Shown: positions 10,376 through 29,332, counted from the stretch's first letter. The stretch is DNA of 64,000 bases from Candidatus Omnitrophota bacterium (GCA_028711115.1 JAQTSV010000001.1:198032-262031); one strand, 5' to 3'. The notes: generated from the letters alone by a model not told the origin. Program-made: numbers and translations.

Positions 10376-10435
10376 TCCGCTGTTTTTAATTCTTCTTAAT
10401 TAACCCGCAATATCAACAATTACCGAAAAATAAAA

Positions 10436-10451
10436 AATGCCGAAGGTGGGA
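10436..10451. repeat. island-distal att repeat (copy of the tRNA-Leu 3' end)
   Basis: aatgccgaaggtggga is identical to 29116-29131, which is the 3' acceptor end of tRNA-Leu on the minus strand. Confidence 0.75.
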
Positions 10452-10765
10452 TTGTAAAAAACTAAATTCCACTCCAATCGTAATTTCCTCTAAATAGCAT
10501 TTCTCGTCGATTAACTTCTGTTCAATTACATTGAGTCACTTTCGATTAGGTAAGCAAAAATGTTAAAATTTCAGACTTTTTGTGCCAAATTTGTGCCAGC
10601 AGAAGTATGTTATTCGCATAGGCAGGGGTTCATGGCTTTATATATATTATTTAATTCCTTACCATTTTGGAATGGCGGAATATAATTAAAATAAAATGTT
10701 ACTCGGATTCTGTTGACTTAAATAACGTATAGGTTATATTATTATTGTAGAAGAAAGGAGCGCAA

Positions 10766-10972
10766 ATGCCTGGTATTCTTAAGCAGTTTGGTAAAAAAGT
10801 TCTTTATTACCGCAAAGGGAAGAAGTTTTCACAGGAAAAACTTGCTAAATTGGCATGTCTTCATCGCACCTACATAAGTCAAATTGAAATTGGCAAAAGG
10901 AACATTGCCCTAAGAAACATTGCTAAACTTGCTAAAGCATTGGGGGTTTCGCCTAAAGATTTACTTAAATGA
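10766..10972 (+). CDS. XRE-family helix-turn-helix regulator
   Basis: FSQEKLAKLACLHRTYISQIEIGKRNIALRNIAKLAKALGVSPKDLL is a classic HTH_3. A TTGACT-N16-TATATT promoter-like sequence lies just upstream. Confidence 0.8.
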   Translation: MPGILKQFGKKVLYYRKGKKFSQEKLAKLACLHRTYISQIEIGKRNIALRNIAKLAKALGVSPKDLLK

Positions 10973-10996
10973 TGTAAGAAAAGCAGGGTATTACAG

Positions 10997-11332
10997 ATGG
11001 AGGTTCATATGATAAAGTGTGTAGACTGTGGTAAGTTAACATTTGAGGTTGAAGGTTCAGATATGTATAAGAACAAAACCGAGGTTTTGTCAGGGTACTG
11101 CCGTAATTGCAATAAAGAGTTTACGGTTGTGAGAATAAAATCAAAAGTATTCAAAGAAGGCCAAAAAGTCAAGTATGAGGTCTACCCAGTTGGAACCGAT
11201 ATAGAAGGTATTATTACTGCAGAGGGTATACGGGCAACTGACCCGAAAATCTTAAAGGAGCTTGATAAACAAGGAATTTCCCACCTTTGTGGATATGATG
11301 AAGCATTAAACGTTAGGAAAACAAGTGATTGA
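10997..11332 (+). CDS. hypothetical zinc-ribbon protein
   Basis: CVDCGK ... CRNCNK forms a four-Cys ribbon. No family recognised. The start could be the internal MIKC. Confidence 0.35.
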   Translation: MEVHMIKCVDCGKLTFEVEGSDMYKNKTEVLSGYCRNCNKEFTVVRIKSKVFKEGQKVKYEVYPVGTDIEGIITAEGIRATDPKILKELDKQGISHLCGYDEALNVRKTSD

Positions 11333-11593
11333 TAATGTCAAAAAAATAAATGGAGAGCACATGGGTGAACAACTGGCTATGCAAAGAGAAGATTTTTAAT
11401 CATGGCCGCACGGGCAGGGATGCATAACTTTGTATATACCGAAAAACCTATATTCGTAGAGTGTAGATTGTGATATAATTATATCTGTGATACTAAGAAA
11501 ATACTTGATTTTTATAAGGGATAGGTATATAAAGATAATGACATTTAAGGTGGTACGTTTGAAGGGGGAACTGCCACGTTAATATAATTAAAA

Positions 11594-11624
11594 CCTTCGC
11601 TCACAAGGCGAGGGATTTTTTATT
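11594..11624 (+). terminator. terminator-like hairpin plus T-run directly upstream of vsr
   Basis: ccttcgc-tcacaag-gcgaggg is followed by attttttattt. It ends 12 nt before the vsr ATG and lies downstream of promoter-like TTGATT-N17-TATAAA (11505-11533). Confidence 0.45.
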
Positions 11625-11635
11625 TATGGGCATCA

Positions 11636-12055
11636 ATGGACAGAATTTCAAAAGAAGCCCGTAGCCGAAATATGGCCGCCATTAAAGGAACAAACACAAT
11701 TCCTGAAATGGCCGTAAGAAGAATGCTTTATTCTTTAGGGTACAGATACAGGCTGCACAAAAAGAATCTTCCTGGTAAGCCTGATATTTTCATAAAGAAT
11801 CGGAATGCTGCAATATTCGTGAATGGCTGTTTTTGGCATCAGCATCCGAATTGCAGATTCGCAACTAAGCCGAAAAGCAACAGAAGATTCTGGATGCAGA
11901 AATTAAAGAAAAACATAAAGCGCGACAGAGAAAATCTTATAAGTCTCAAAGAGCTAGGCTATAAGATCATCTCGATCTGGGAATGTGAAATCGGCAAACA
12001 GTCAATCGGCATGAATCAAAGGCTCGTGAAGAGATTAATAAGATCGTTAGGGTAA
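11636..12055 (+). CDS. vsr: very-short-patch repair endonuclease
   Basis: Carries SRNMAAIKGTNTIPEMAVRR, GKPDIFI and FVNGCFWHQH. Length of 139 aa fits. Confidence 0.9.
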   Translation: MDRISKEARSRNMAAIKGTNTIPEMAVRRMLYSLGYRYRLHKKNLPGKPDIFIKNRNAAIFVNGCFWHQHPNCRFATKPKSNRRFWMQKLKKNIKRDRENLISLKELGYKIISIWECEIGKQSIGMNQRLVKRLIRSLG

Positions 12056-12060
12056 AAGTT

Positions 12061-13155
12061 ATGGAGAAAGCCAATCTTAATGTGGTCGATTTGTTCTGCG
12101 GATGCGGCGGATTGTCGCTTGGGTTTATAGAAGCGGGATATAATGTAATTTTGGGAGTTGACAACGACCCCGCAGCTCTGGAGACATTTAAAGCTAATCA
12201 TAACGGAGCTGAAGCATGGAATACAGATCTTTCTGATAATTCATTTTTAAAAGAAATGTATAGGGCCACAAAGGATAAGAAGATAGATGTAATAATAGCT
12301 GGTCCACCGTGTCAGGGGTTTTCTCTTACCGGACTACGTAATTTTGATGATAAGAGAAATGTTCTTTATCTGGCAGTTATTGCCGCAGTAAAAAAGATAA
12401 AACCGAAAGCTTTTCTTATCGAGAATGTGCCTGGATTGGCAGCTCTTTACGGCGGTCAGGTTAAGGATGAAATTATCAGACGTCTTAAAGATGTGGGGTA
12501 CAATGTGACAATGGATATTCTTTGTGCCGCTGATTACGGCGTGCCGCAGATGCGGAAGCGGGTTTTCTTTGTAGGAATGGAAAAAAGTCTGGGACAGTTT
12601 GAGTTTCCACCAAAAACGCATTTACCGGATAATTATGTTACCTGCGCGGATGCAATCAGTGATCTGCCGAGCAGAGAAGATGAATCGGGAGAGGAAGAGG
12701 ATGATTACGAAAGTCCTCCGCTTACTTCTTATCAGAGAGAACTGCGAAGTAACTGCAGGAAATTGTATAATCATACAGCTACAAACCATACGGAAATTGT
12801 AAAAAATGTTATTAAGCTTGTTCCAGAGGGAGGCGATTACAGAGACCTGCCTAAGGGGGTTGGCGAGCACAGGAAATTCAATGAAGCATGGACCCGTTAT
12901 CACGGCAATAGGCCTTCGCATACAATTGACACCGGCCACCGCAACCACTTTCATTATAAGTACAACAGGGTCCCAACCGTAAGAGAGAATGCTCGCTTAC
13001 AGTCTTTTCCGGATTCTTTTGTTTTCTGCGGAACAAGAACACAACAGAACAGACAAGTTGGTAATGCTGTGCCTCCATTAATGGGATATTATCTTGGCAA
13101 GCAGCTTTTTAGTTATATAAGACAGGAACAGGAATTAGTCTATGGCAAAATATAA
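12061..13155 (+). CDS. DNA (cytosine-5) methyltransferase, M1
   Basis: Motif I DLFCGCGGLSLGF, IV GPPCQGFS, VI ENVPGL, VIII QMRKRVFFVG, IX RENARLQSFPDSF, X GNAVPPLM. Confidence 0.9.
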   Translation: MEKANLNVVDLFCGCGGLSLGFIEAGYNVILGVDNDPAALETFKANHNGAEAWNTDLSDNSFLKEMYRATKDKKIDVIIAGPPCQGFSLTGLRNFDDKRNVLYLAVIAAVKKIKPKAFLIENVPGLAALYGGQVKDEIIRRLKDVGYNVTMDILCAADYGVPQMRKRVFFVGMEKSLGQFEFPPKTHLPDNYVTCADAISDLPSREDESGEEEDDYESPPLTSYQRELRSNCRKLYNHTATNHTEIVKNVIKLVPEGGDYRDLPKGVGEHRKFNEAWTRYHGNRPSHTIDTGHRNHFHYKYNRVPTVRENARLQSFPDSFVFCGTRTQQNRQVGNAVPPLMGYYLGKQLFSYIRQEQELVYGKI

Positions 13156-14377
13156 AATTATAGATCTTTTTGCAGGATGCGGGGGTCTGTGTGATGGGTT
13201 TGAACAGACCGGATTTTTTTATCAGGTTGCCTGTGTGGAATGGGAAAAAGCTCCAAGGGATACACTTGTCAGACGCCTAGAAGACAGATGGGGATATGCA
13301 GATGCACAATATCGCGTAGCCCGCTTTGATATTCAGCGGACAGATGAATTATTCAGGGGCTGGACAAAAGATTCTGTTTATGGTGACGGGGTCGGATTGG
13401 ACAAGCTTGTGGCAAAGAGCGGACATATTGACCTGATTGTAGGTGGTCCTCCATGTCAGGCATATTCCATAGCCGGTAGGATTAGAGATGAAAACGGTAT
13501 GCAGAATGACTACAGGAATTATCTTTTTGAGTGTTATCTGAAGGTCGTTGACAGATACAAGCCAAAAGCATTTGTTTTTGAAAATGTTACAGGCATATTA
13601 AGCGCCCGTCCGCACGGAATCAATATAATTGAAAGAATCAGGCAGACATTCCTTGACCATGGCTATGAACTGATTAATAATATCAGTAATAATGCCATTG
13701 TAGATCTTGTCCATTTTGGAGTTCCGCAGAAAAGATCGCGTGTAATTTTACTTGGCCTAAATCGTTCAAAATTCACTGGAGACAGGCAAAAAGCTTTATC
13801 TGAATTCTACAACGATATTCTGCCCGCTTACCGATCGGACAAAGTATCTACAGTCCGTGATGCGATTGGAAATCTGCCGGCCCTACGTCCGGTGAAAGGC
13901 TCATATAAGGTTAATAATCGTCTCTATTCCCATAAGCCTGACAGCACTGATATTCTGAATCATTATCCACGGTATCATAATTCCAGAGACAGGAAAATAT
14001 TTTATGAACTTGCTGCAGATCTGGATTCGGGTAAAAACCACTATGTATCTGTTGAAGCAATTAAGCAGCTATATGCAGAAAGAACCGGCCGGACCTCAAG
14101 CGTGCATAAGTATTACGTATTACGTCGAAATGAACCTAGCAATACAATTCCGGCCCATTTATACAAGGACGGTCTGCGGCACGTTCACTATGATCCCAAA
14201 CAGGCCAGATCAATTACCGTAAGAGAGGCTGCCCGGCTTCAGACTTTTGATGATGATTTTGAATTCCTGGGCAGCATGGGAGATCAGTATAAAATGATAG
14301 GCAATGCTGTACCGCCGCTGTTTTCAAAAAGATTAGGTTATGCTGTAAAAGATCTGCTTCATAAATATAAACTATAG
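13142..14377 (+). CDS. DNA (cytosine-5) methyltransferase, M2
   Basis: Carries DLFAGCGGLCDGF, GGPPCQAYS, ENVTGI, QKRSRVILLG, REAARLQTFDDDF and GNAVPPLF. It overlaps M1 by 14 nt. Confidence 0.9.
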   Translation: MAKYKIIDLFAGCGGLCDGFEQTGFFYQVACVEWEKAPRDTLVRRLEDRWGYADAQYRVARFDIQRTDELFRGWTKDSVYGDGVGLDKLVAKSGHIDLIVGGPPCQAYSIAGRIRDENGMQNDYRNYLFECYLKVVDRYKPKAFVFENVTGILSARPHGINIIERIRQTFLDHGYELINNISNNAIVDLVHFGVPQKRSRVILLGLNRSKFTGDRQKALSEFYNDILPAYRSDKVSTVRDAIGNLPALRPVKGSYKVNNRLYSHKPDSTDILNHYPRYHNSRDRKIFYELAADLDSGKNHYVSVEAIKQLYAERTGRTSSVHKYYVLRRNEPSNTIPAHLYKDGLRHVHYDPKQARSITVREAARLQTFDDDFEFLGSMGDQYKMIGNAVPPLFSKRLGYAVKDLLHKYKL

Positions 14378-14390
14378 GAAGGGGAACAAT

Positions 14391-15389
14391 ATGACTACAG
14401 AGTATGTTTATATAAGAAAACTTAATGCTCAGGAATTGGGTTTTAGAAAAGGCGAACCTAAAAAAGCCGGCCGCTATATTTATGTTTCGAAAGAATATCT
14501 GTCGTTTTTTCCTCCGCTGAGTACGGTTATCAGAAATGACCATGTGATAATTGATCTTATTCCTCCCGCCCTGAACCATGTTGTATTAACAAGCTTTGTG
14601 TATCACAATGATAAAATTATTGATAATAAACCTAATGGCAGGGACGAATTCAGGATATATCTTAATGAGGCAACTGATCCAGGAAGAAACTATTTTCAGC
14701 CTGAGGATATTATTGTTATTCACCGGTTTGAAACAGAAAACGGTAAAGTGGCATACAGGATGTATTGTTTTCCGGCGGCAAGAAAAGGTACAGAATACGG
14801 TCTTCTGGAAAAACTGCTTGAAGATAAAGGAATTCATGAATCTCATGCCCTGTTGCCTATATCCGCCATCCCATTTCTGAAGATCAGTCGGAATATCGAT
14901 GGTTCAATCGTGGTTGTTCCTGAGGAAGTGAAAGAAGCTGTACTTGAAGAAGAAGTCAGCCTCATTTCTGAAGAAGAAATGAAGAAGGAATTTGAATTTA
15001 CAAGCCTTATCCGGGAATCCGCTTTTAGAGACCTGCTTTTATATTTCTATGATTTCAGATGCGCGGTCACAGGTACAATAATAAGATACGATAGTCTTAA
15101 TAACCTGGAAGCCGCTCATATTATACCTGATGAATTACGGGGTCCGGCACATCCTAAAAACGGATTGCCTTTAAGTCGAGATATGCACTGGGCTTTTGAT
15201 AAAGGTTTTTTTACGCTTAATGACACATATGAGATTGTTGTTCATGAGAAAGTAATAAATAATGAGGTTTTATCTAAGATTCATGGCAAGAAGATCATTT
15301 TACCGGAAGATTCCAGAGCCAGGCCTAGCAGTTTTTCGTTAAACTGGCATAAAGATAATGTATTTGGTGTATTTATCAAATCGATTTAA
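14391..15389 (+). CDS. putative restriction endonuclease with C-terminal HNH nuclease domain
   Basis: CAVTG...LEAAHIIPDELRGPAHPKNGLPLSRDMHWAFDKGFF is an HNH (HNH_2-like) motif. The gene starts 14 nt after M2 in the same operon. Confidence 0.7.
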   Translation: MTTEYVYIRKLNAQELGFRKGEPKKAGRYIYVSKEYLSFFPPLSTVIRNDHVIIDLIPPALNHVVLTSFVYHNDKIIDNKPNGRDEFRIYLNEATDPGRNYFQPEDIIVIHRFETENGKVAYRMYCFPAARKGTEYGLLEKLLEDKGIHESHALLPISAIPFLKISRNIDGSIVVVPEEVKEAVLEEEVSLISEEEMKKEFEFTSLIRESAFRDLLLYFYDFRCAVTGTIIRYDSLNNLEAAHIIPDELRGPAHPKNGLPLSRDMHWAFDKGFFTLNDTYEIVVHEKVINNEVLSKIHGKKIILPEDSRARPSSFSLNWHKDNVFGVFIKSI

Positions 15390-15452
15390 TGAGAGTTCGC
15401 TTGTAAAAATTTAAAATTCTAGATGGTTACGATCTAAAAGGAGTCTAATAAT

Positions 15453-16694
15453 ATGAGTACGGAAAGCCCAAGACACGATCCCAGAGAAATAATTCGTGGT
15501 TTTCAGAATTTACTTTCTTCGCCTGCAAAGTCTGTTGGTTTCTTTGCCGGAGCAGGAACATCAATGTCGGTAAAGGACCCAACATCAAAAAAAGCAATTA
15601 TTCCCGGTATTAACGAATTGACCGATACCGTGGAGAGCCAACTATCGACTGGAAAGTTTAAAGAGTGCTATAAGCTTATAAAACAAGAACTCAACAGTAG
15701 TAAACAACCTTCTCAGATTGAATATATACTTTCAAATATACGCCTTAAGGCTCAGGTTGTTGGTCCAGAAACTTTATGTGGTTTGAATCAGCAAGGCTTT
15801 ATAGACTTGGAGACAGAAATTACTGCAAAAATAGAGAATCTGGTTTCTCCTGAGATTCCACAAGATATAATTCACCAAAAATTTGCAAAATGGATACGCA
15901 ATGCTAATAGAAGAAAGGCAATAGAAATATTTACAACAAACTATGATTACTTGTTTGAAGTCGGTTTTGAAAGAGAGAAAGTTCCATATTTTGATGGGTT
16001 CGTTGGGAGTCATAGCCCATTTTTTTACCCTACAGCGGTGTCGGAAAATGATTTACCAATTGATTGGGTGCGCTTATGGAAGGTCCATGGATCTCTCGGA
16101 TGGCGATTTGATAAAAAACAAAAACGAATAATTCGTGAAAAAGTTAAAGGAAGTTTAATGGTTTTTCCGTCTTTGCTAAAATATGACGACTCTAGGAAAC
16201 AGCCATATGTGAGCTTTATAGATCGGTTGGCCAATTTTTTACGAGAGGACGATAGTTTCTTAATAATTTGTGGTTATGGATTTGGCGATCAACACCTTAA
16301 CGATACCATTATTCATGCATTGTCTAGAACGTCTAGATCTGCAGTTTACGCATTTCTTCATGATGATGCTACCGAAGATGATCCCGCAGTTAAATTAGCC
16401 AAATACGAATCCCGTTTGACATTAATGGCAAAAAACTCAGCAGTAATAGGTGGCGTGTACGGATTATGGAAATTGAATAGAGAGCCTTCAGTATCAGATA
16501 GTATTCAGATTAGTTCTTATTTTGACGAAGACGCTATTCCAGCAAATCCGGTTACGCCCGCCAAGGGGAATGATAAAAAAATAACTATTGATGAAATCCA
16601 TTGGGAAGGTAAAGGTATCTTAAAATTGGGGGATTTTTCGAAACTTGTGGATTTTTTAAATCTGATGCTCCCCAAAGCAATGCTTGAGGAATAA
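15453..16694 (+). CDS. SIR2-like (SIR2_2 family) protein, defence-type
   Basis: Carries FFAGAGTSMS, IFTTNYDYLFE, WKVHGSLGW and ICGYGFGDQHLN. AAGGAG RBS is present. HerA follows 2 nt downstream. Confidence 0.8.
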   Translation: MSTESPRHDPREIIRGFQNLLSSPAKSVGFFAGAGTSMSVKDPTSKKAIIPGINELTDTVESQLSTGKFKECYKLIKQELNSSKQPSQIEYILSNIRLKAQVVGPETLCGLNQQGFIDLETEITAKIENLVSPEIPQDIIHQKFAKWIRNANRRKAIEIFTTNYDYLFEVGFEREKVPYFDGFVGSHSPFFYPTAVSENDLPIDWVRLWKVHGSLGWRFDKKQKRIIREKVKGSLMVFPSLLKYDDSRKQPYVSFIDRLANFLREDDSFLIICGYGFGDQHLNDTIIHALSRTSRSAVYAFLHDDATEDDPAVKLAKYESRLTLMAKNSAVIGGVYGLWKLNREPSVSDSIQISSYFDEDAIPANPVTPAKGNDKKITIDEIHWEGKGILKLGDFSKLVDFLNLMLPKAMLEE

Positions 16695-16696
16695 AA

Positions 16697-18502
16697 ATGC
16701 TCCGTAATGATACAATTATAGGCTCAGTAGAAAGCGTTTTAGGAAATCGTATATCAATTTTGATTGATACCGATCGTCTTCCGTCTAATGTTCCAGTTAT
16801 TGATGGGCGTGTATATCGTGTCGGGCAAATAGGATCATTCTTAAGAGTTCCGGTTGGTTATATCGATCTCTATGGAGTAGTTACTCAGGCAGGGGCAGAT
16901 GCGATACCTGAAAAGCTACGAGATACAGATGATCCAGACAAGCTTAAAAAACAAGCCAGAAATTGGCTGACAATGGTTTTAGTTGGAGAAAGAATTGGCG
17001 ATCATTTTGAGCGTGGTGTAAGTCAATCGCCGGTTGCTGGGGATCAAGTTCATCTCGTTACGATCGATGATTTAAAGATTATTTACGGAAACATGGATGA
17101 TAAAACCTCTATATCGATCGGCCAGATTAGTGCATCTGAGAGCTTATCCGCAAGACTAGATATAGATAAACTAGTAACGAGGCATGTTGCGCTTCTTGGT
17201 TCCACGGGAAGTGGAAAATCCAATGCTGTAACGGTGTTTCTTTGTGAAATAGCTAAAGGTAAATTCCCATCGGCACGCATACTATTAATAGATCCTCATG
17301 GAGAGTATGGTACGGCTTTAGGGAGGTATGCCAGAGTATTTAAGATTAACGCTGATGTGCAGAACGGCGAATACCCGTTATTTATTCCTTATTGGGCGTT
17401 ACCTTTTGGGGAGTTATTAAAAACATTCGTAGGCGTACTTACAGATCCTCAGGAAGAGTATGTAAGAGAAAAGATTTTTTCAAAAAAATTAGAGGCCAGT
17501 AAACTTTTATCCTCTCCTCCTGAAGAAGCGGCGCTGAGCGCAGACAGTCCCATACCTTTTAGCCTAAAAGAACTGTGGTATCAATTAGATCGTTTTGAAC
17601 GTCTTACTATTAATAGAGGAGCAAACGGAGTTATTACCGAAGCATTGATAAAAGAAGGTGATTCTGATTCTCTGGTTAGCGCACAATTTGAACCTCATTC
17701 AACCACAAACACGAATCCTTATTTAAATAACCAAGCCAAAGGAATTCTACGTTACCTTAACAATATTAGAAATCGGCTAGTTGATCAGCGATTTAATTTT
17801 TTCTTTCATTCGGGTGAATGGGAGCCTGCAAAGGATGGAAAGATAAAGAAAGATTTAGATGCCCTTTTAATAGATTGGTTAGCTCACGATAGACCTATTA
17901 CCGTATTGGATTTATCAGGAGTACCTCCTGAAATTACTGCAATTGTATCAGGCGCTGTTATTCGTATTGCCTATGATGCATTGTTTTGGGCACAAGATTT
18001 GCCAATTGGCGGTAGAAAGCAACCGTTGCTAATGGTATTAGAAGAGGCTCATATGTATTTACAAGCTGGGGAAGAATCCGTCGCTTCTACTTCTGTGAGA
18101 AGCATTGCAAAAGAGGGCCGAAAATATGGCCTAGGGTTAATGCTAGTAACTCAAAGACCATCCGAACTTGATCCCACAGTTCTTAGTCAATGCGGAACCA
18201 CAATCGCATTACGCATGACTAACGGACAAGATAGAGGGCATGTCTCATCCGCGGTTCAGGACGACCTATCAGACATGTTAGCTCTCATACCAAGTTTGCG
18301 AACTGGAGAAGCTTTAATCTTTGGGGAAGCCGTAAAGATTCCATCGCGCGTAAGAATCGACGCTGCTACAAAAGCACCAAGAAGCGAGGATCCCAAAGTC
18401 TCGATGGCATGGGCACAGACTCCGCCATCAGCCGACTATTATAAACAGGCAATCGATCTTTGGCGCAATGGTAGATTTAGCATTGAAAAGAAGGAGAAAT
18501 AA
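16697..18502 (+). CDS. HerA-like (DUF87) ATPase
   Basis: Has an N-terminal HAS-barrel-like region, Walker A LLGSTGSGKSNAV, Walker B LLMVLEEAH, and RKYGLGLMLVTQRPSEL. Confidence 0.85.
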   Translation: MLRNDTIIGSVESVLGNRISILIDTDRLPSNVPVIDGRVYRVGQIGSFLRVPVGYIDLYGVVTQAGADAIPEKLRDTDDPDKLKKQARNWLTMVLVGERIGDHFERGVSQSPVAGDQVHLVTIDDLKIIYGNMDDKTSISIGQISASESLSARLDIDKLVTRHVALLGSTGSGKSNAVTVFLCEIAKGKFPSARILLIDPHGEYGTALGRYARVFKINADVQNGEYPLFIPYWALPFGELLKTFVGVLTDPQEEYVREKIFSKKLEASKLLSSPPEEAALSADSPIPFSLKELWYQLDRFERLTINRGANGVITEALIKEGDSDSLVSAQFEPHSTTNTNPYLNNQAKGILRYLNNIRNRLVDQRFNFFFHSGEWEPAKDGKIKKDLDALLIDWLAHDRPITVLDLSGVPPEITAIVSGAVIRIAYDALFWAQDLPIGGRKQPLLMVLEEAHMYLQAGEESVASTSVRSIAKEGRKYGLGLMLVTQRPSELDPTVLSQCGTTIALRMTNGQDRGHVSSAVQDDLSDMLALIPSLRTGEALIFGEAVKIPSRVRIDAATKAPRSEDPKVSMAWAQTPPSADYYKQAIDLWRNGRFSIEKKEK

Positions 18503-18507
18503 TAATT

Positions 18508-18720
18508 ATGGATATGAAGCCAGTGGCCTCCTCCAATATTCAGGCGGTCGGATATGATGAATCCACAGAAACCATGCGGGTGCAATTTAATAATAGTTCA
18601 GTATACGAGTATCATAATATACCTTTAATTGTATATAATGATTTTATGCAAGCAAGTTCATTAGGGGCTTATTTAAATAGAAATATTCGAAATAACTATT
18701 CATACGAAAAGATAGCATGA
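18508..18720 (+). CDS. KTSC domain protein
   Basis: PVASSNIQAVGYDESTETMRVQFNNSSVYEYHNIPLIVYNDFMQASSLGAYLNRNIRNNY matches my memory of the KTSC domain pattern. It starts 5 nt after herA. Confidence 0.7.
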   Translation: MDMKPVASSNIQAVGYDESTETMRVQFNNSSVYEYHNIPLIVYNDFMQASSLGAYLNRNIRNNYSYEKIA

Positions 18721-18735
18721 TTTCTTAGGTATACG

Positions 18736-19512
18736 ATGAGCCAATACTATAACGGAAAGAGAACGCGTAATTTGTTCGATCCTAAAAGCGCTATACCATT
18801 CAAATTAAGTCGTACAAAAATAGATCTTTTTTTATCATGCCCAAGATGTTTTTATCTTGATAGACGGTTAGGTGTTGGACAGCCTCCGGGATTTCCATTT
18901 AGTCTTAATTCGGCTGTAGACACTCTTCTAAAAAAAGAATTTGACGTTTATCGAAAAAACCAAATAGCACACCCTTTAATGAAAGTTTTTGGCATTGACG
19001 CTATTCCGTTTCAACATGAAAATCTCGAAGAATGGCGTGACGCTTTACGGAAAGGAATTTCATATTTTCACAAACCGACAAACTTTACCGTTACCGGTGC
19101 AATAGATGATGTGTGGATGACTCCAGAAGGTGAATTACTGATAGTCGATTATAAAAGTACATCCAAAAAAGAAGAAGTTAATTTAGATGCCGAATGGCAG
19201 ATAACCTATAAAAAACAAATGGAGCTTTATCAGTGGCTTTTTCGTCGGAATGAGTTTAGGGTTTCGGAAACAGGATATTTTGTTTATTGTAATGGTCTGT
19301 CAGATAAAGAAACTTTTGCAAATAAACTCGAATTTGATATAAAAATAATTCCGTATAAGGGTAATGATGCATGGGTTGAGTCAACTTTGATAGATGCTAG
19401 AAAATGTTTAGATGCTGATACGATTCCGAGGGCAAGTCCAGATTGCGATTTTTGCCGATATTGTAAGTTGGTGAAAGAAGTCGAATTGGATAAGGTTGTC
19501 AAGCAGTGCTAA
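18736..19512 (+). CDS. PD-(D/E)xK nuclease, Cas4/RecB-like with Cys cluster
   Basis: Carries GAIDDVW...LLIVDYKST (D...D/ExK) and QMELYQWLF (QxxxY). N-terminal CPRC plus C-terminal CDFCRYC cysteines suggest an Fe-S cluster. Confidence 0.7.
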   Translation: MSQYYNGKRTRNLFDPKSAIPFKLSRTKIDLFLSCPRCFYLDRRLGVGQPPGFPFSLNSAVDTLLKKEFDVYRKNQIAHPLMKVFGIDAIPFQHENLEEWRDALRKGISYFHKPTNFTVTGAIDDVWMTPEGELLIVDYKSTSKKEEVNLDAEWQITYKKQMELYQWLFRRNEFRVSETGYFVYCNGLSDKETFANKLEFDIKIIPYKGNDAWVESTLIDARKCLDADTIPRASPDCDFCRYCKLVKEVELDKVVKQC

Positions 19513-19562
19513 AAAGACAAATATATTTTACGTCTATAAAGTAACGATGTTTTGTGTGCAGA

Positions 19563-19757
19563 TTAAAATTTCAGTAATTCAGCAGGTTTTACCTTCAACG
19601 CTTTAGCAAGTCTTACAATGGTAGTTAATCGTACATCGGGAGGATTTTTACTTTCAATTCTTTGAAGATATTTATAGCTAGTTCCAATAAGTTCTGCTAG
19701 TTGTTCCTGCGTAATACCTCGTTTTCTGCGAAGTTCTTTAATTTTCTTGCCTAACAT
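19563..19757 (-). CDS. XRE-family HTH regulator
   Basis: MLGKKIKELRRKRGITQEQLAELIGTSYKYLQRIESKNP...LAKALKVKPAELL. The upstream 43 codons of the listed ORF are Cys/His-rich junk that overlaps the operators. The start could also be 19778. Confidence 0.7.
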   Translation of the reverse strand: MLGKKIKELRRKRGITQEQLAELIGTSYKYLQRIESKNPPDVRLTTIVRLAKALKVKPAELLKF

Positions 19758-19778
19758 TATTCTAGTAAAAGTATCCAT

Positions 19779-19838
19779 ACACCCTATTATTGCATGGTGT
19801 ATTAATTCTTGACACCCCCAGATATGATGGTGTATACT
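19779..19838. promoter_or_regulatory. two ACACC-N12-GGTGT inverted repeats overlapping a TTGACA-N18-TATACT promoter
   Basis: IR1 is 19779-19800 (acaccctattattgcatggtgt). IR2 is 19812-19833 (acacccccagatatgatggtgt). TTGACA lies at 19809-19814 and TATACT at 19833-19838, facing the HNH gene. Confidence 0.55.
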
Positions 19839-19867
19839 TTGCTTAAAATTTAAAGTGGGAAGATGAG

Positions 19868-20182
19868 ATGAGCAAAGTAATTCCACCTAAATTAAAATTA
19901 AAGATTTTGGCGCGTGATAATTACTTGTGTCGGTATTGTGGTAAGGATGGTTTTGAGTCATTTGAAAGCTGGTGTTATATAGATGTAGACCATTTTGATC
20001 CAACCCTACCAGATACAGAAATCAATAATGAGAATAATCTAGCCACTGCCTGTAGATTTTGTAATTCTCAAAAAGGAGATAAGGGATTCAGAACTATTCA
20101 AGAGGCAAGAGCATTTCTTGTACAACGAAGAATAGAGAAATTTAAAGAATTTCAAATGAGGAAGAAAGAAATAAGAGGTTAA
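19868..20182 (+). CDS. small HNH endonuclease
   Basis: CRYCGK ... DVDHFDP ... NLATACRFCNSQKGD is the HNH zinc-finger pattern. Confidence 0.75.
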   Translation: MSKVIPPKLKLKILARDNYLCRYCGKDGFESFESWCYIDVDHFDPTLPDTEINNENNLATACRFCNSQKGDKGFRTIQEARAFLVQRRIEKFKEFQMRKKEIRG

Positions 20183-20372
20183 CCACATTTTTTCGCCTTC
20201 GCCCAAAAACCTTCCAACCCACAAGTAGAAAGCCTTTTATTTTTTGTTAGAAAGCCTCTAGGAACAAATATTAATTTTTTTTTGGGGAAAGGGTTGGGCG
20301 GATGAGCAATTGTTGTTCCTAAACAATGCTAGAGGGCTTTTCCCAAAGAATGTGATTTTTATTTGAAAGGAG

Positions 20373-20711
20373 ATGAAAATGCAATTTAAGACAATCGAAG
20401 GAGAAGCAATAGTAAAAGAAGGAAAGGCGAATAAAACAAATTTCTTTATCTCTCAAGGCGGAGACCTCTATCTGACTAACAAAAGACTGGTTTTTATAGG
20501 CCATGGTGTTAATATCGCAACCAGTACCTTGGCAGTGAGTTTGAGCGAAGTTTTAATAATCAGAAAGGCTTTCACTTGGACTATTCTTGCTTTGCTTCTT
20601 CCTATTCCAAATGCATTTAAGATAACCTTGAATAACGGTAAAGTATATAAATTTACTGTTTTCAAAAGAGAGGATTGGATTTCCGTCATAGAAAATGCCG
20701 TATCTAGGTAA
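20373..20711 (+). CDS. hypothetical PH/GRAM-like domain protein
   Basis: GGDLYLTNKRLVFIG ... FKITLNNGKVYKFTVFKREDWISVI resembles bacterial PH/GRAM-like domains. AAGGAG RBS is present. Confidence 0.4.
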   Translation: MKMQFKTIEGEAIVKEGKANKTNFFISQGGDLYLTNKRLVFIGHGVNIATSTLAVSLSEVLIIRKAFTWTILALLLPIPNAFKITLNNGKVYKFTVFKREDWISVIENAVSR

Positions 20712-21026
20712 AAGAGAAAAACGATAGTTATTTTTATTGATAATAGCATAGGAAGTGAAACGTAAAATTCAACCTATCAACCGCCCCCCGATTCTTAGAA
20801 GCCTTTATTCTTTGTGAAAACACCCTTCCTTGGTGTTAAAAAGAATTTTCCGGAAAAAACTCCTTTTTTGTCTGAGAAAACCCCAAATAAAGCCTGTCAG
20901 AGCCTTTTTTTCTTCGCCATTTTAGATACGGTTTTTTAATTTTCTTTTTTTATAAAAGTAGAAGAAAATTAAAGGTGACAAGGGAAGACAGAGAAAGATA
21001 AAGACGCAAAGAAATAGGGAGGTGTT

Positions 21027-21779
21027 ATGCGTAAAATACCAGTATTATTAGTTGTTCTATGTTTCGCTGGGATCGGATTTCTTTATGCCGCCCCAGTAGA
21101 TGTGCCTACAAAAATTCAAGGGTTGGAAGGGAATATTCTTAAAAATAAAGAATCAGGTATTGGATTATCGATAGTTGAGGAAGCAGACTTTTTAAGTGAA
21201 AGAAAGTTGGATATAACGGACAGCGAAGACATTGCAGAGGTAAAAGGTCAATTTTATACTACCAAGATAATTTTAACAGTTATTGATAAATTTGATTTTT
21301 ATGGGATTTTTGGAAAAGCAGAGAATTTAGAATACGAAGATAATATTAAACCGAAAGATAAACTTACATGGGGTGTAGGATTGAGTGCGCCAATTTATGA
21401 ATGGAAGAATCACGGTATCAAGCTTTTTGCCGATGGGAAATACAGAACAGTAAACAATATTGATTATACTAGTAATTATGAATTACCCATTCCTCATCAT
21501 CATGGGATTAATCATACATTGCCAAAATTTCTGGTGGATTGGCAAGAATGGCAAGTTGCCTTAGGATTAGCCAAGCATTTTGGACATTTTATGCCCTATC
21601 TTGGTGTCAAGTATTCTGATTTCAGGGAATCCAGCGAAGTATCCTCAAGTTATAGCGACAGTATAGTTGGAATATTTGTGGGTTGTGCCGTAACTCCGAT
21701 GAAGGCATTTTCTATTGACCTACAAGGTCGCTTTATTGATGAAAGAGCACTTACAATAAAAGCTACTTATAAATTTTAA
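21027..21779 (+). CDS. putative outer-membrane beta-barrel protein
   Basis: Has a signal peptide (LVVLCFAGIGFLYA|AP), alternating beta-strand pattern, and C-terminal ...IKATYKF with a terminal Phe. Confidence 0.5.
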   Translation: MRKIPVLLVVLCFAGIGFLYAAPVDVPTKIQGLEGNILKNKESGIGLSIVEEADFLSERKLDITDSEDIAEVKGQFYTTKIILTVIDKFDFYGIFGKAENLEYEDNIKPKDKLTWGVGLSAPIYEWKNHGIKLFADGKYRTVNNIDYTSNYELPIPHHHGINHTLPKFLVDWQEWQVALGLAKHFGHFMPYLGVKYSDFRESSEVSSSYSDSIVGIFVGCAVTPMKAFSIDLQGRFIDERALTIKATYKF

Positions 21780-21966
21780 TACAACTATGATTGGTATGGA
21801 GAATAAATCACTGTTAGGATCAGGAAAAGATAGTGAAAGTATGGGTTTTATATACTTGATGGTATAGGGAAACACTTCTGCTTGAGAACACAGAGATATC
21901 ATTAGTGATGCGTATCAGACATAAAGAAAAATAAACCAATAGTATAGGGAAAATAAAAGTGATTAT

Positions 21967-22500
21967 ATGAAGATAGCTATTTATGCGCGGGTAAGTAAGA
22001 ATGATACGAGTCAAGATCCCCAGAATCAACTTAATCCTCTGCGGGATTTTGCTAAGGCTATTGGTGGTGAGGTAGTATCAGAATATGTTGATTTAGCCTC
22101 TGGAGGCAAAAGTGATAGAGAAAGCTTCTTAATGATGCTGAGTGATGCAGATAAAAGGAAATTCGATCTGTTGCTTATTTGGGCTCTAGATAGATTGTCA
22201 AGAGAAGGTATCAGTAATACACTAGGTTATATGGAGAGACTCAAGAAGAATGGCATTGCTATAAAGTCTTTGCAGGAGTCTTGGTTGGATACGAGGGATG
22301 ACGGTATAGGACAGTTGCTCATAGCGGTATTCTCTTGGGTGGCGCAGCAGGAAAGGAAGAGAATTGTCGAAAGGACAAAGGCGGGACTTGAGCGAGCCAA
22401 GCGAGAAGGCAAAACACTTGGTAGACCAACAGGGAAAAGGGATGGTAGACCGCGATCACGGGCAGGCTATTTTTTACGCCACAAAAAATCCTCCCCCTAA
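21967..22500 (+). CDS. small serine recombinase (resolvase/invertase catalytic domain; no recognisable HTH)
   Basis: Carries MKIAIYARVSKNDTSQDPQNQL, LLIWALDRLSREG and ERTKAGLERAKREGKTLGRP. The tail after GRP is Arg/Lys-rich with no HTH pattern. Confidence 0.75.
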   Translation: MKIAIYARVSKNDTSQDPQNQLNPLRDFAKAIGGEVVSEYVDLASGGKSDRESFLMMLSDADKRKFDLLLIWALDRLSREGISNTLGYMERLKKNGIAIKSLQESWLDTRDDGIGQLLIAVFSWVAQQERKRIVERTKAGLERAKREGKTLGRPTGKRDGRPRSRAGYFLRHKKSSP

Positions 22501-22571
22501 GAATAGACTGTTATTTGAGCTCACGAATAGACCGTCAAAAAATCGCTCGATTATTTGTTTAGTAAAGTCCT

Positions 22572-22733
22572 ATGAAATACAAAGATTGGCTGAGGCTTAT
22601 TAGGAAACATCCGCATAAGGATTTAGATGGTAAATACCTTGCCTACGACGATGGTAAACCAATTGGCGAGATAGTCTTTAAGGAAGGCGTTGTAATTTCC
22701 CGAAAGAAATTAAAGAGGGGAGAAGTAATTTAA
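22572..22733 (+). CDS. hypothetical small ORF (53 aa, hand-translated)
   Basis: MKYKDWLRLIRKHPHKDLDGKYLAYDDGKPIGEIVFKEGVVISRKKLKRGEVI. Below the ORF-track cutoff. No family recognised. Confidence 0.2.
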   Translation: MKYKDWLRLIRKHPHKDLDGKYLAYDDGKPIGEIVFKEGVVISRKKLKRGEVI

Positions 22734-22758
22734 TAGAATATAGAAAGGAAGGTGGCAG

Positions 22759-23508
22759 ATGGAAGGCGGAAGAATGTTGCGTAACTCACAGATTATTGTT
22801 TTAGGTATTTGTATTGCAGCAGCAACGATTGTTTCAAGCATTATTTTATCTCAAGGATTTTTAAAAGTTACGAAGTTCGTTAAAGAACAGATTATAGTTA
22901 CAGGTTCGGCTCAGAAGAACATCAGAAGCGATTACATTGTCTGGAGAGGGATTTTTTCGATTAGACAGGCAGATTTAAAGAGCGCGTATCAGAAGCTTGG
23001 TGAAGATCTGGTAAAAGTCAAAAAATATCTTATTGATAAAAGGGTTGATGAAAAAGAAATAATAGTTTCTCAGATCGTTACAAATAAGATTTACAAGAAG
23101 AATGAAAAGGGGAACGATACAAACGAAATCCAATGGTATGCGTTGAGCCAGACAGTTGAATTGTGTTCGAATGACGTGGACAAGGTAGATAAAATATCCA
23201 GAGAATCCACAGAATTAATAAACGATAATGTGGAATTTGAGTCGCAGGCACCGGAATATTTCTATACCAAACTTGATGAGTTAAAGATAGAGATGCTTGC
23301 TAAGGCCAGCGAGAATGCAAAACAGAGAGCAGAGAGTATGGTTAAGGCCACTGGCAATAAAATAGGTTTTATGAGATCAGCCCGGATGGGCGTGTTCCAG
23401 ATTACGCCAATTAATTCAACCGAGGTTAGTGATTGGGGAGTTAACGATACCACTTCTATTGAAAAGAAAGTAACTGCGGTAGTAAGTGCTAGTTTTGCTA
23501 TTGAATAG
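22759..23508 (+). CDS. SIMPL (DUF541)-like membrane-anchored protein
   Basis: Has an N-terminal TM. IIVTGSAQKNIRSDYIVW..., AKASENAKQRAESMVKATGNKIG and the overall pattern resemble YggE/SIMPL proteins. Confidence 0.5.
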   Translation: MEGGRMLRNSQIIVLGICIAAATIVSSIILSQGFLKVTKFVKEQIIVTGSAQKNIRSDYIVWRGIFSIRQADLKSAYQKLGEDLVKVKKYLIDKRVDEKEIIVSQIVTNKIYKKNEKGNDTNEIQWYALSQTVELCSNDVDKVDKISRESTELINDNVEFESQAPEYFYTKLDELKIEMLAKASENAKQRAESMVKATGNKIGFMRSARMGVFQITPINSTEVSDWGVNDTTSIEKKVTAVVSASFAIE

Positions 23509-23525
23509 TATATAGGTAAGGCAAA

Positions 23526-23939
23526 ATGGGATACGATAGAAAGTTATTAGAATCTTGGATAAGTATGGAGGATTGGGGTGATCATGTCGTTAAGAACGGC
23601 GGACTAGCTTCGAAAGAGGGATTTGATTTTCTCAGCAAAGAATATTTCTTAGAAGTAAAAAGAAAAATAGGCTATTGTAATAAATTATTAAAGAGCCACG
23701 AGGACGCATTTTTGAATTTTGTTATTGCGACGCTCTATGATAAATATGATCTTGATAAATCACCCGCTTATCTTTACAAGCGGTCAGTAAAATATTATTG
23801 CCTGAGAGCACTTGAGATTGATCCTGATTTCACTCCCGCGAAAGAGCTATTGCAGAAAGTAGAGACATGGTTAAACTTTATCGGTGGTGACAAAAACCAA
23901 CATTATATATCAGGAATAGACTTTTTTTCCGGGGATTAA
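23526..23939 (+). CDS. hypothetical protein
   Basis: ORF only. A weak TPR-like stretch (CLRALEIDPDFTPAKELLQK). Confidence 0.3.
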   Translation: MGYDRKLLESWISMEDWGDHVVKNGGLASKEGFDFLSKEYFLEVKRKIGYCNKLLKSHEDAFLNFVIATLYDKYDLDKSPAYLYKRSVKYYCLRALEIDPDFTPAKELLQKVETWLNFIGGDKNQHYISGIDFFSGD

Positions 23940-24014
23940 AAAAGACAAAATAAAGATTGACAAAGTGTATACCTTCGTGGTATCCTTTTATTAAATCAAA
24001 TTTGAGAGGAAATT

Positions 24015-24533
24015 ATGGTATTGACTAAAGCAGCAAAAATAAGAAACGATGAGGGGCTTCTCCTAAACGAATTCTCCCGAAAACTCAGGGAGCGAGGAAT
24101 TGATGTCACCCCTAGGCAGTTGCGGCACTGGGATGCCTCTGGTCTTCTAAAACCATTTATTGATGAATCGAAATATAGGCGTTATAGCTATGATGATATA
24201 GATCAGGCCATATTCATTTTTGTCCTTAATAAGGTGTTAAAATTTAAGTTGCCAAGGATAAGAAACATTTTGAACTGCATGAAACCGGAACAGAAGCTAC
24301 AGGAAATGCTTAACAAAAACCCTGTATCCTTGATGTCCAAGTACAGAAATGCCAAGGGAGAAGAAGGATGGTATTTAAAGAGAGAAATGAGAGATGATAT
24401 AAAGGATATCCAAAATTCTCTCAAGAACTTTAAAGAGAGTATGGAAAAGTTCGAGACAATGCTTGAAGATGCGATAATACATTTCTATAAAGTAATATAC
24501 GAATACCAGCGCAAACTTAATAAAGAGAAGTAG
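24015..24533 (+). CDS. MerR-like HTH regulator
   Basis: VTPRQLRHWDASGLLKP...YRRYSYDDIDQAIFI fits the MerR N-terminal pattern. TTGACA lies at about 23957 upstream. Confidence 0.55.
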   Translation: MVLTKAAKIRNDEGLLLNEFSRKLRERGIDVTPRQLRHWDASGLLKPFIDESKYRRYSYDDIDQAIFIFVLNKVLKFKLPRIRNILNCMKPEQKLQEMLNKNPVSLMSKYRNAKGEEGWYLKREMRDDIKDIQNSLKNFKESMEKFETMLEDAIIHFYKVIYEYQRKLNKEK

Positions 24534-24596
24534 GATTTTTTTTAGGTAAACATTAACACTATGGTAACCTTAATGTAATAGTGTAAGGAGAATGAA

Positions 24597-27269: not shown

Positions 27270-27521
27270 ACTTTACCATAACTTCGTTTAAAAAAGTTAA
27301 CTCCTCTGTTTACAAAGAGATACAAACGATTTTACTAACTTTTTTAGTTTTTCCGGGGGTAATTGGCGTGAATATGTATAAAGACAAGGGAGCATAAATG
27401 TATATATATTCATTATCTACACTGAAAAAGGTAAAAAGTTTTAATTTTAGTTTAAGTTTGAATTCAAAAACTTTTTTAAAAAAGCTATGAAAAAGTTGAA
27501 AAAGAAAGGAGATGATATTTA

Positions 27522-27680
27522 ATGTACAGTCCAAAAATTAAAGAGGATTTGATAGGTAAGATGTTTCAGATTAAACAAAAGACTGGCAAGCCCATGACTC
27601 GACAAGTCAACGAAGCGATAAGAATGTATGTATCTAGGTTTGAGCAGAATGAAAGTAAGGAGGCAACCAGTGACAGATAA
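27522..27680 (+). CDS. small ribbon-helix-helix-like protein (52 aa, hand-translated)
   Basis: MYSPKIKEDLIGKMFQIKQKTGKPMTRQVNEAIRMYVSRFEQNE. AGGAG RBS is present. Below the ORF-track cutoff. Confidence 0.4.
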   Translation: MYSPKIKEDLIGKMFQIKQKTGKPMTRQVNEAIRMYVSRFEQNESKEATSDR

Positions 27681-27849
27681 TTACGATAATGTTTGTAGTT
27701 GCTGTGGAGATCAAGAAATTGATCCAGCTTATCACATCTGTGAGAAGTGTAGACGAAAGATACGAGATTTAGGCAGTAAAGAACGTAATGAAGACGAGAA
27801 TTCAAACATAAACGAAAAGGTTAAGGTGGAAAATGGAAATGTATCTTGA
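27670..27849 (+). CDS. small zinc-ribbon protein
   Basis: GTG start with AAGGAGG 7 nt upstream. Carries CSCC ... CEKC. This is the in-frame C-terminal part of the listed ORF 27628-27849. Confidence 0.3.
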   Translation: MTDNYDNVCSCCGDQEIDPAYHICEKCRRKIRDLGSKERNEDENSNINEKVKVENGNVS

Positions 27850-28003
27850 TAAAAAGGAATTAGCTAAGGTTTTGAATATTCCAATCACGTCTATCGATTA
27901 TTACAGAAGGGAAAAAGGCATGCCAAGCATAAAAATAGGCAAGCATAACAGATATGTTTTGAGTGACATTAGAAATTGGTTGGAGAAAACTAAACAAAAC
28001 TAA
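27833..28003 (+). CDS. xis: excisionase-type HTH protein (56 aa, hand-translated)
   Basis: MEMYLDKKELAKVLNIPITSIDYYRREKGMPSIKIGKHNRYVLSDIRNWLEK has the HTH_17/AlpA-like pattern. Its stop overlaps the integrase ATG (TAATG). Confidence 0.65.
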   Translation: MEMYLDKKELAKVLNIPITSIDYYRREKGMPSIKIGKHNRYVLSDIRNWLEKTKQN

Positions 28004-29082: not shown

Positions 29083-29117
29083 AATCGTGTTTTGTCGACG
29101 AGCAGATAAAAATTTAA

Positions 29118-29200
29118 TGCCGAAGGTGGGAGTCGAACCCACATGTCCGTAAAGACACCGGTTTTTGAGACCGGCGTGTCTGCCATTCCACCACTTCGGC
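29118..29200 (-). tRNA. tRNA-Leu (anticodon CAA), no encoded CCA
   Basis: Hand-folded. Acceptor GCCGAAG/CTTCGGC, anticodon arm CCGGT-CTCAAAA-ACCGG, long variable arm, T arm GTGGG-TTCGACT-CCCAC. Confidence 0.85.
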
Positions 29201-29294
29201 AAAAATTAAACTTTTTTATAATCTTTACTAAAGAACTAGACCGGTTTTTCCCTCGCGTGTCCGCTCGGGACTTCGCTCGCTAAAGCTCGCTTCG

Positions 29295-29332
29295 TGAGAC
29301 CGGCGTGTCTGCCATTCCACCACTTCGGCAAA
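29295..29332 (-). repeat. 38-bp duplicate of the tRNA-Leu 5' half (pseudo-tRNA fragment)
   Basis: tgagaccggcgtgtctgccattccaccacttcggcaaa is identical to 29166-29203. That span is tRNA nt 1 to the anticodon loop, plus 3 flanking nt. Confidence 0.75.

Follow-up and report, generated by a model that had tools for sequence, protein, structure and literature searches.

The operon described here raises the question of whether a known two-gene defence system against phages has been extended with further genes, or whether these genes only happen to stand beside it. It lies at positions 15,453 to 19,512 of a stretch of 64,000 nucleotides from a Candidatus Omnitrophota bacterium (GCA_028711115.1 JAQTSV010000001.1:198032-262031; the whole stretch is called the window, and coordinates are counted from its first letter). 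Four open reading frames (ORFs) share one orientation there (+ strand) and are separated by 2, 5 and 15 nt in gene order. An earlier note, made from the sequence alone, had read them as SIR2, HerA, KTSC and a Cas4-like PD-(D/E)xK nuclease and had proposed that the last two are a new addition to the SIR2-HerA defence system. The ORF coordinates are exactly as it placed them, the domain calls for all four proteins were borne out by profile searches, and all the motifs that it quoted are present. The genes are:

15453..16694, + strand: SIR2-family NADase effector of Paenibacillus-type SIR2-HerA, 413 aa (ORF, Pfam, PADLOC and PDB matches)
16697..18502, + strand: HerA ATPase/translocase without terminal KTSC domain, 601 aa (ORF, Pfam, PADLOC and PDB matches)
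18508..18720, + strand: KTSC protein, 70 aa, putative detached C-terminal (arm-tip) domain of HerA (PF13619, alignment to 8wiv_A, AlphaFold2 (AF2) model)
18736..19512, + strand: accessory RecB/Cas4-like PD-(D/E)xK nuclease, 258 aa, with a predicted CxxC...CxxC metal cluster (PF12705, AF2 model)

The locus is a variant of a known abortive-infection system, and what is new is the nuclease in an accessory slot and KTSC as an overlooked third gene. We think it rather probable that the operon is a SIR2-HerA system of the Paenibacillus type on a tRNA-Leu island, in which KTSC is a split HerA domain and the nuclease is a cassette working with the complex on the ends of phage DNA.

The SIR2-HerA core and the KTSC gene

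By sequence, SIR2 and HerA are the experimentally validated Paenibacillus sp. 453MF type of SIR2-HerA defence system, the one that was originally validated and later solved by electron cryo-microscopy (8wiv/8wld/8w9l; PMC11472057). The SIR2 protein matches Pfam SIR2_2 (PF13289, E = 4.6e-18) and, over its full length, the PADLOC SIR2 model PDLC04093 (E = 3.9e-117), and HerA likewise matches DUF87/HerA (PF01935, E = 3.2e-36) and the full-length PADLOC HerA model PDLC04105 (E = 2.5e-152). In a search of the PDB sequences SIR2 was matched to 8w9l, the Paenibacillus SIR2 (E = 2e-59), and HerA to 8wiv, the 696-aa HerA of Paenibacillus sp. 453MF (E = 4.5e-151), with residues 4-593 aligning collinearly with residues 10-604 of 8wiv_A. 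The SIR2 motifs are GAGTS at 33, TTNYD at 161 and HGS at 212, of which TTNYD (161-165) and H212 coincide with the catalytic N163/D165/H212 of Paenibacillus (PMC11472057), and HerA has a Walker A motif, GSTGSGKS, at 168 and a Walker B motif, VLEEAH, at 447. The sequence marks of a Paenibacillus-type SIR2-HerA pair are found here, namely adjacency and common orientation, a match to a curated model or validated homologue, and intact catalytic and Walker residues, and the earlier note had correctly taken the core for SIR2-HerA defence genes. SIR2 and HerA stay below the cutoffs of the NCBIfam equivalogs SIR2_antiphage (60.6 bits, cutoff 500) and HerA_antiphage_2 (243 bits, cutoff 850); these models represent other subtypes.

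In relatives of this system, HerA hexamers and SIR2 rings build a supercomplex and infection leads to NAD+ depletion, and there is also ATPase, helicase and nuclease activity. The E. coli SIR2-HerA systems (Nezha, types I-III; 8j4u; PMC13434337) likewise combine a SIR2 NADase with a HerA ATPase and cause abortive infection via NAD+ depletion, but 8j4u has only distant similarity to the window proteins (HerA 3e-35, SIR2 4e-10), the HerA chains of the E. coli type have no KTSC match, and they are described strictly as two-gene systems. Common to the window operon and the Paenibacillus system (Gao et al. 2020) are both protein lineages, the catalytic residues and a KTSC module at the HerA end. 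The difference is that KTSC in Paenibacillus is fused to HerA (696 aa), whereas it is a separate gene in the window (70 aa) and in all 23 sampled metagenomic and plasmid loci; furthermore, the construct tested from Paenibacillus had two genes and no Cas4-like nuclease, while the window operon has one.

To judge from alignment and modelled structure, the KTSC gene is HerA's own C-terminal domain encoded as a separate polypeptide, and this is the usual arrangement in the lineage. The protein matches Pfam PF13619 (E = 1.7e-23, 82.5 bits against a cutoff of 25) and no PADLOC model, and phmmer aligns its residues 5-69 to residues 632-696 of the 696-aa 8wiv_A (E = 3e-11), so that its match and that of HerA (10-604) are collinear on one and the same chain. 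The AF2 model (predicted local distance difference test score, pLDDT, 95.4) can be superimposed on the HerA chains of 8wld/8wof/8wiv with a template modelling score (TM) of 0.82-0.89 and a root-mean-square deviation of 1.2-2.4 Å over 69 residues, and on the stand-alone KTSC crystal structures 7x8c and 4rgi with a TM of 0.93. In the structure paper, HerA residues 576-696 are a "C-terminal arm domain" bracing the neighbouring subunit, and KTSC is never named (PMC11472057). By analogy, the free KTSC protein would presumably bind to HerA and form the tip of an arm that braces neighbouring subunits. No experimental papers on KTSC function were found in our literature search, and the experimental SIR2-HerA literature consulted here, including PMC11472057 and PMC13434337, describes two-gene systems only.

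The split is not peculiar to the window. The best 120 HerA homologues (54-100% identity) are about 590-617 aa long, except for a few truncated entries, and 0 of them have a KTSC domain. A separate KTSC gene stands directly after HerA in 23 of 23 distinct homologous loci, with HerA identity from 100% down to 38%, and these include 10 of 10 annotated plasmids, from Rhizobium, E. coli, Sulfitobacter, Bradyrhizobium, Sphingomonas, Paracoccus, Pseudoalteromonas, Citrobacter, Aeromonas and Paraburkholderia. In 17 distinct loci KTSC follows HerA without the nuclease of the window operon. The suggestion that KTSC is a novel addition therefore does not hold, since it aligns with and superimposes on the C-terminal domain of HerA and since every homologous locus examined has it, whether the nuclease is there or not. 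The same goes for the view of KTSC and the nuclease as a pair, as about 77 loci with a solo nuclease lack KTSC and no KTSC-nuclease combination was found outside the operon.

The earlier note had also considered that these two genes could be an independent two-gene system riding in the operon of a two-gene SIR2-HerA. Their tight 15-nt spacing would be in keeping with this, and so would one weak KTSC-PDDEXK_3 fusion among the KTSC representatives (P0344, E = 1.4e-4, below the cutoff). In the solved system, however, KTSC belongs to the HerA chain as one of its domains, it occurs after HerA in the 17 loci without this nuclease and in none of the about 77 solo nuclease loci, and it diverges together with SIR2 and HerA and not with the nuclease: between the window locus and locus L088 the protein identity is 88% for SIR2, 93% for HerA and 91% for KTSC, and 68% for the nuclease. 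The proposal is contradicted by KTSC being a HerA domain, by the solo nucleases without it and by this co-divergence, and we find it hardly credible.

The nuclease and its link to the operon

The fourth gene is a predicted RecB/Cas4-like DNA-end nuclease and not Cas4 proper. It matches PDDEXK_1 (PF12705, E = 2.6e-15, 57.5 bits against a cutoff of 22) and, weakly, the PADLOC Cas4 models (5e-7 to 4e-5). It is set apart from Cas4 because it does not reach the Cas4 equivalog TIGR00372 (26.9 bits against a cutoff of 65) and because there are no cas genes nearby, at least among the profiled ORFs at 10.7-29 kb, which are restriction-modification (R-M), SIR2-HerA, regulator, recombinase or primase genes (CRISPR arrays were not specifically searched for). 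Its motifs are CPRC at 35, DDVW at 124, DYK at 138, QMELY at 161 and CDFCRYC at 237, and residues D124, D125, D138, Y139, K140, Q161 and Y165 are among those that are invariant in 45 sequences of the family. The five cysteines of the earlier description have to be revised, as the protein has 8 in total and the family keeps only C35, C38, C237 and C240 invariant, while C243 is not conserved; this is a 2+2 arrangement, as opposed to the 1+3 of the N- and C-terminal Fe-S ligands in Cas4. The AF2 model (pLDDT 86.8) was matched by Foldseek to RecE, the AdnAB nuclease domain, Cas4 (4r5q, 4ic1), EXO5 and AddB with a probability of 1.0 and a TM of only 0.34-0.44, and a search against the PDB sequences gave no match. 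In the public annotation the identical protein (P0001) has 246 aa instead of the 258 aa given here, and the upstream ATG at 18736 (258 aa; 18736-18771) is supported by the family-conserved N-terminus MSxYYNxKRTRN.

Is the nuclease part of the operon, or a chance neighbour? It stands directly after KTSC in 6 of the 8 loci where HerA is at least 84% identical (the window locus, L001, L002, L088, L090 and L111), in the same slot and on the same strand, with unrelated flanking genes. The gap between KTSC and the nuclease, where the start of the latter is defined, is 14-21 nt in five of these (the window locus, L001, L002, L088 and L090) and 15 nt in L111, and the junction is also present in L010, which is a fragment. 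The window locus and L001 have a nucleotide identity of 75-87% that extends from the SIR2 start codon to the stop of the nuclease, and since the homology is bounded by these two points, the four genes appear to move as one block. As the earlier note had supposed, the downstream genes are linked and not accidental neighbours, on account of the four-gene order in 6 distinct loci with different flanks and of the block boundaries. SIR2 and KTSC each have a Shine-Dalgarno-like sequence in front of them and the nuclease has a weaker one, and that the operon would be transcribed as a unit is inferred only from the spacing, the Shine-Dalgarno-like sequences of SIR2 and KTSC and the conserved synteny.

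Within the block, however, the nuclease has a history of its own. At the nucleotide level, the identity of about 90% between the window locus and L088 falls to 60-75% exactly at the KTSC/nuclease junction, and the nonsynonymous divergence (dN) is 0.24 for the nuclease against 0.035-0.067 for SIR2, HerA and KTSC. The ratio to synonymous divergence (dN/dS) is 0.03-0.07 for all four genes, with 0.067-0.069 for the nuclease, which points to strong purifying selection, although dS is saturated. In a bootstrapped neighbour-joining tree of 26 nucleases (300 replicates), those of the window locus, L001, L002 and L010 cluster at 100%, the linked nuclease of L090 clusters at 100% with the solo copy of L012, to which it is 90% identical, and monophyly of all linked nucleases is seen in 0 of 300 replicates. 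The linked nucleases are thus polyphyletic and make up at least three lineages among the solo copies. Read from these comparisons, the nuclease is a single-gene cassette inserted in a variable slot after KTSC and replaced at least once.

The scan of the genome collection with HerA gave only 2 loci, too few for statistics, and protein look-ups and tblastn against plasmids were used instead. L091 was first taken as a locus without the nuclease, and a direct comparison revealed that it is identical to L090 and merely truncated. A rule by which nucleases of at least 80% identity are linked and those of at most 74% are solo was also given up, as the nucleases of L088 and L090 are linked at an identity of 67-70%. 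As a separate observation, the four-gene blocks of L111, a Syntrophaceae metagenome-assembled genome (MAG), and L002, from Omnitrophica UBA6210, are 94, 97, 96 and 89% identical while the upstream genes differ, and this near-identity between MAGs of different phyla indicates either a recent horizontal transfer or a binning error. By the source names of proteins identical to its own, the window itself belongs to a Candidatus Omnitrophica MAG.

The family to which the nuclease belongs is very large, with more than 8000 clusters at E < 1e-100, and unusually conserved, the protein here being 60-74% identical to copies in Patescibacteria. The 79 metagenomic loci that were fetched with the nuclease have KTSC, HerA or SIR2 nearby only when they are of this operon type, and about 77 are solo; examples are L006 (8001-8756) and some 70 further loci (L011-L087) in Patescibacteria and related groups. 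In Patescibacteria the solo copies lie among housekeeping genes, and they have no conserved partner, as at most 9 of 72 loci share a neighbour cluster and all such clusters are housekeeping genes. The nearest solo relatives have variable surroundings, with MmeI, BrnT, HigBA-like, type I S and DUF3800 genes next to them. With 0 matches in the phage collection and 1 in plasmids, the nuclease is not typical of phages or plasmids. Solo Cas4-family genes are common in the small-genome bacteria and have been noted, with unknown function, in bacteria from the candidate phyla radiation (CPR; PMC5704561), and the fourth gene belongs to these solo-Cas4/PF12705 nucleases, a very large, conserved and mostly chromosomal family; the CPR copies sit among housekeeping genes, whereas those described here have been taken up into a defence operon that a mobile island carries.

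This makes it possible, though in our view unlikely, that the nuclease is a module of its own, be it a repair or defence enzyme that acts alone or a selfish cassette, which tends to land 3' of defence operons and is co-transcribed by accident, uncoupled from the function of SIR2-HerA-KTSC. The about 77 solo loci without HerA and KTSC, the want of a conserved partner, the abundance of solo Cas4-family genes in small-genome bacteria (PMC5704561) and the lack of the nuclease in most SIR2-HerA-KTSC loci all agree with this, and so does the comparison of the linked L090 and the solo L013 nucleases, which are 90% identical, where the nucleotide homology is limited to the ORF and the solo copy adjoins an MmeI enzyme. 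An independent cassette would on the other hand not be expected to keep the same position, strand and 14-21-nt gap in 6 distinct loci with unrelated flanks, to be inherited with the three other genes as one sharp-ended block, or to be under purifying selection equal to that of the core genes. Nor does it fit well that at least three independent nuclease lineages have come to occupy exactly this slot, and that two other Cas4/RecB-like nuclease types abut the SIR2-HerA-KTSC trio elsewhere. The earlier note would have taken it as a sign of accidental adjacency if homologous SIR2-HerA loci never carried the KTSC/nuclease pair and the pair occurred mostly elsewhere, and here the outcome goes both ways: most homologous SIR2-HerA loci do lack this nuclease and most of its homologues occur elsewhere, but the link within the close clade is consistent and recurrent.

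The reading that we prefer, a nuclease that works together with the SIR2-HerA-KTSC complex, thus has a number of observations to contend with, which should be told together. The nuclease follows KTSC in 0 of the 14 assessable loci with HerA at most 65% identical, and two of the close loci (HerA at least 84%), L105 and L107, hold other genes in the slot. The family is overwhelmingly solo, with near relatives beside unrelated defence or toxin-antitoxin genes, and a nuclease that occurs on its own can function without HerA and could be mere cargo of the island. Scans for promoters and terminators in the operon region gave results no better than shuffled sequence controls. Which substrate the nuclease acts on, and with what polarity, is read from distant folds (TM 0.34-0.44), and sirtuin and endoDNase have been described as mutually exclusive in HerA systems (Iyer et al. 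2022; PMC9503650), from which it would follow that such nucleases normally replace SIR2 and do not cooperate with it. A functional coupling of the nuclease to SIR2-HerA-KTSC is thus plausible but unproven.

Possible roles of the nuclease and the variable slot

If the nuclease is coupled to the complex, it would be co-expressed with SIR2-HerA-KTSC and would act with it on phage DNA ends. Most likely, it would resect the ends into 3'-tailed or forked DNA, the substrates that this type of HerA complex favours; a preference for 3'-overhang and forked DNA has been reported for the Paenibacillus complex (PMC11472057). The resected ends would then drive the HerA ATPase and thereby license the NADase as in related systems, and in the type III (E. 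coli subtype) SIR2-HerA it is indeed DNA ends that drive the ATPase and lift the ATP checkpoint on the NADase (PMC13434337). Alternatively, the nuclease could be a second effector that degrades DNA.

The nuclease could also be a safeguard or regulator, for instance one that clears host DNA ends or nicked intermediates that would otherwise trip the ATPase/NADase switch, so that a toxic system carried by a mobile island would cause less autoimmunity. The licensing of the NADase by DNA ends in a related subtype (PMC13434337) would give such an enzyme something to do, and a variable slot with a nuclease that is dispensable in most lineages fits a modulatory role better than a core one. But the slot elsewhere holds SLATT, a typical effector domain, and the closest Cas4-family accessory precedent, ACE1, enhances interference instead of dampening it, and we consider this role quite improbable.

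The nuclease of the window is not the only gene that has been placed beside the trio, as the following neighbours in other loci demonstrate:

L008 (Binatia), overlapping the SIR2 start: TM0106-family RecB-like nuclease (TIGR03491, 1e-63)
L095 (Rhizobium plasmid), 1.2 kb upstream: TM0106 nuclease and SF1 (superfamily 1) helicase
L107, 6268-7758, 9 nt after KTSC: 496-aa DUF2779 protein, Cas4-style motifs by direct reading
L101, 5256-5810, 10 nt after KTSC: SLATT-domain gene
L100, 6102-7139, 2 nt after KTSC: 345-aa gene, no family match
L105, 6261-7163, right after KTSC: 300-aa gene, no family match

The TM0106 nucleases combine a PD-(D/E)xK with an RNase H-like domain, and a large helicase gene is found near each of them (L008 4258-5757 and 9978-13361; L095 1-1577). 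For the DUF2779 protein, neither BLASTP nor hhalign could demonstrate homology to TM0106 or to the 250-aa nuclease family (E = 0.39 and 0.43), and it has no match among the PDB sequences. Together, these neighbours suggest a variable accessory slot beside the trio, into which end-processing nucleases have been recruited repeatedly.

Two other observations concern the surroundings of the trio. SbcC/SbcD-like nuclease-ATPase pairs flank it, always on the opposite strand, in three unrelated loci (L092 319-4576, L097 1-1509 and L099 6198-9842), and these may be a further recurrent association with DNA-end machinery, or plain clustering in defence islands. In L090, two genes downstream of the nuclease, there is a 352-aa ORF (9828-10886) with a weak match to SIR2_2 (E = 1.2e-3), which from its sequence may be a second, divergent sirtuin-like gene.

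A combination that comes close to the window operon has been mentioned before. Iyer, Burroughs, Anantharaman and Aravind (2022; PMC9503650) refer, as an unpublished observation, to variants with HerA, KTSC and an endoDNase instead of a sirtuin. These variants also join a HerA-like ATPase to a DNase and a gene with a KTSC domain, but the endoDNase takes the place of the sirtuin, while SIR2 and a nuclease occur together in the window, L008, L095 and L107, and this co-occurrence contradicts a strict exclusivity of sirtuin and DNase. Of the novelty that the earlier note claimed for the combined addition, the KTSC part is lost and the nuclease part stands only partially, as Iyer et al. already mention HerA with KTSC and endoDNase.

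Other systems offer looser parallels. The Cas4-family accessory nuclease ACE1 boosts a stand-alone Argonaute system (PMC12094033), and in this prokaryotic Argonaute-ACE1 system (APACE1; 9iac/9iab) there is, as in the window, a Cas4-family accessory beside a defence system that also works alone. The partner there is an Argonaute and not HerA, and the fold similarity of the window nuclease is weak (ranks 20-28, TM 0.23-0.35), so a function like that of ACE1 is only an analogy. The archaeal HerA-NurA end-resection machine likewise has a HerA translocase and a nuclease acting on DNA ends, but the NurA fold is unrelated and binds the N-terminal face of HerA, in contrast to the PD-(D/E)xK nuclease of the window, and domain profile searches found no NurA domain in the four proteins or their neighbours.

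A wider and more tentative reading, which we hold to be rather doubtful, is that KTSC-type SIR2-HerA has a modular slot that recruits at least three kinds of end nuclease, and that resection gates NAD+ depletion, which would overturn the exclusivity of sirtuin and DNase. If it is true, the independently recruited kinds would be DUF2779, TM0106 and the 250-aa CxxC...CxxC family, the last with at least three captures or replacements, and the slot would also hold other effectors such as SLATT. The nuclease would make phage ends 3'-tailed or forked, and such substrates would load HerA and lead it to burn ATP.

The island and the wider meaning of the operon

The operon is cargo of a genomic island of about 18.7 kb at a tRNA-Leu(CAA) gene, recognized by its direct repeat and integrase. 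The repeat, AATGCCGAAGGTGGGA, is 16 nt long and present at 10436-10451 and 29116-29131, with its second copy forming the 3' end of the tRNA-Leu. The main features of the island are:

10436..29131, no strand: genomic island with the operon as cargo (direct repeat and integrase)
11636..15389, + strand: R-M module with Vsr, two Dcm C5-cytosine methylases and HNH endonuclease (Pfam Vsr, DNA_methylase twice, HNH_2)
21967-22500: resolvase
24597-27269: AEP primase (AEP-TOTE-type)
28003-29082: tyrosine integrase, adjoining the tRNA
29117-29201, - strand: tRNA-Leu(CAA)

The interior of the island also has a MerR regulator and SIMPL and OMP-like genes. In the R-M module, the two methylases have overlapping ends, and the 332-aa HNH_2 endonuclease resembles phosphorothioate-DNA-binding restriction enzymes (NCBIfam NF045808, 4.9e-23, below the cutoff). 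The module, directly upstream of SIR2, is variable cargo and not part of the system, because homologous operons have unrelated R-M genes in that place and the homology to L001 and L088 starts only at the SIR2 start. Downstream of the operon, at 19563-20182, an XRE-type helix-turn-helix gene on the - strand and a 104-aa HNH gene on the + strand have divergent starts and share 19 nt; among the promoter-like sites of the region the best, with 11 of 12 matches, is at 19809-19838, and an XRE-type gene is also kept downstream of the operon in L002. A 45-nt copy of the 5' half of the tRNA-Leu, 93% identical, lies at 29288-29332, 129 nt past the gene, and could be a tRNA fragment or what is left of an earlier integration.

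The SIR2-HerA of the Paenibacillus type has been treated as a two-gene system, but in 23 of 23 loci, among them those on E. coli, Klebsiella-group and rhizobial plasmids, KTSC is conserved as a separate third gene. This matters to anyone who tests such systems, as constructs of "SIR2 + HerA" made from loci with a split KTSC would miss a part of the HerA arm. The close operons that have the nuclease, a swapped allele of it, or a different gene in the slot are a natural experiment on whether an end nuclease feeds the logic of end sensing and ATP checkpoint, and the capture of the nuclease into a defence operon ties a large and conserved family of solo Cas4-like nucleases, typical of CPR bacteria, to a defence context.

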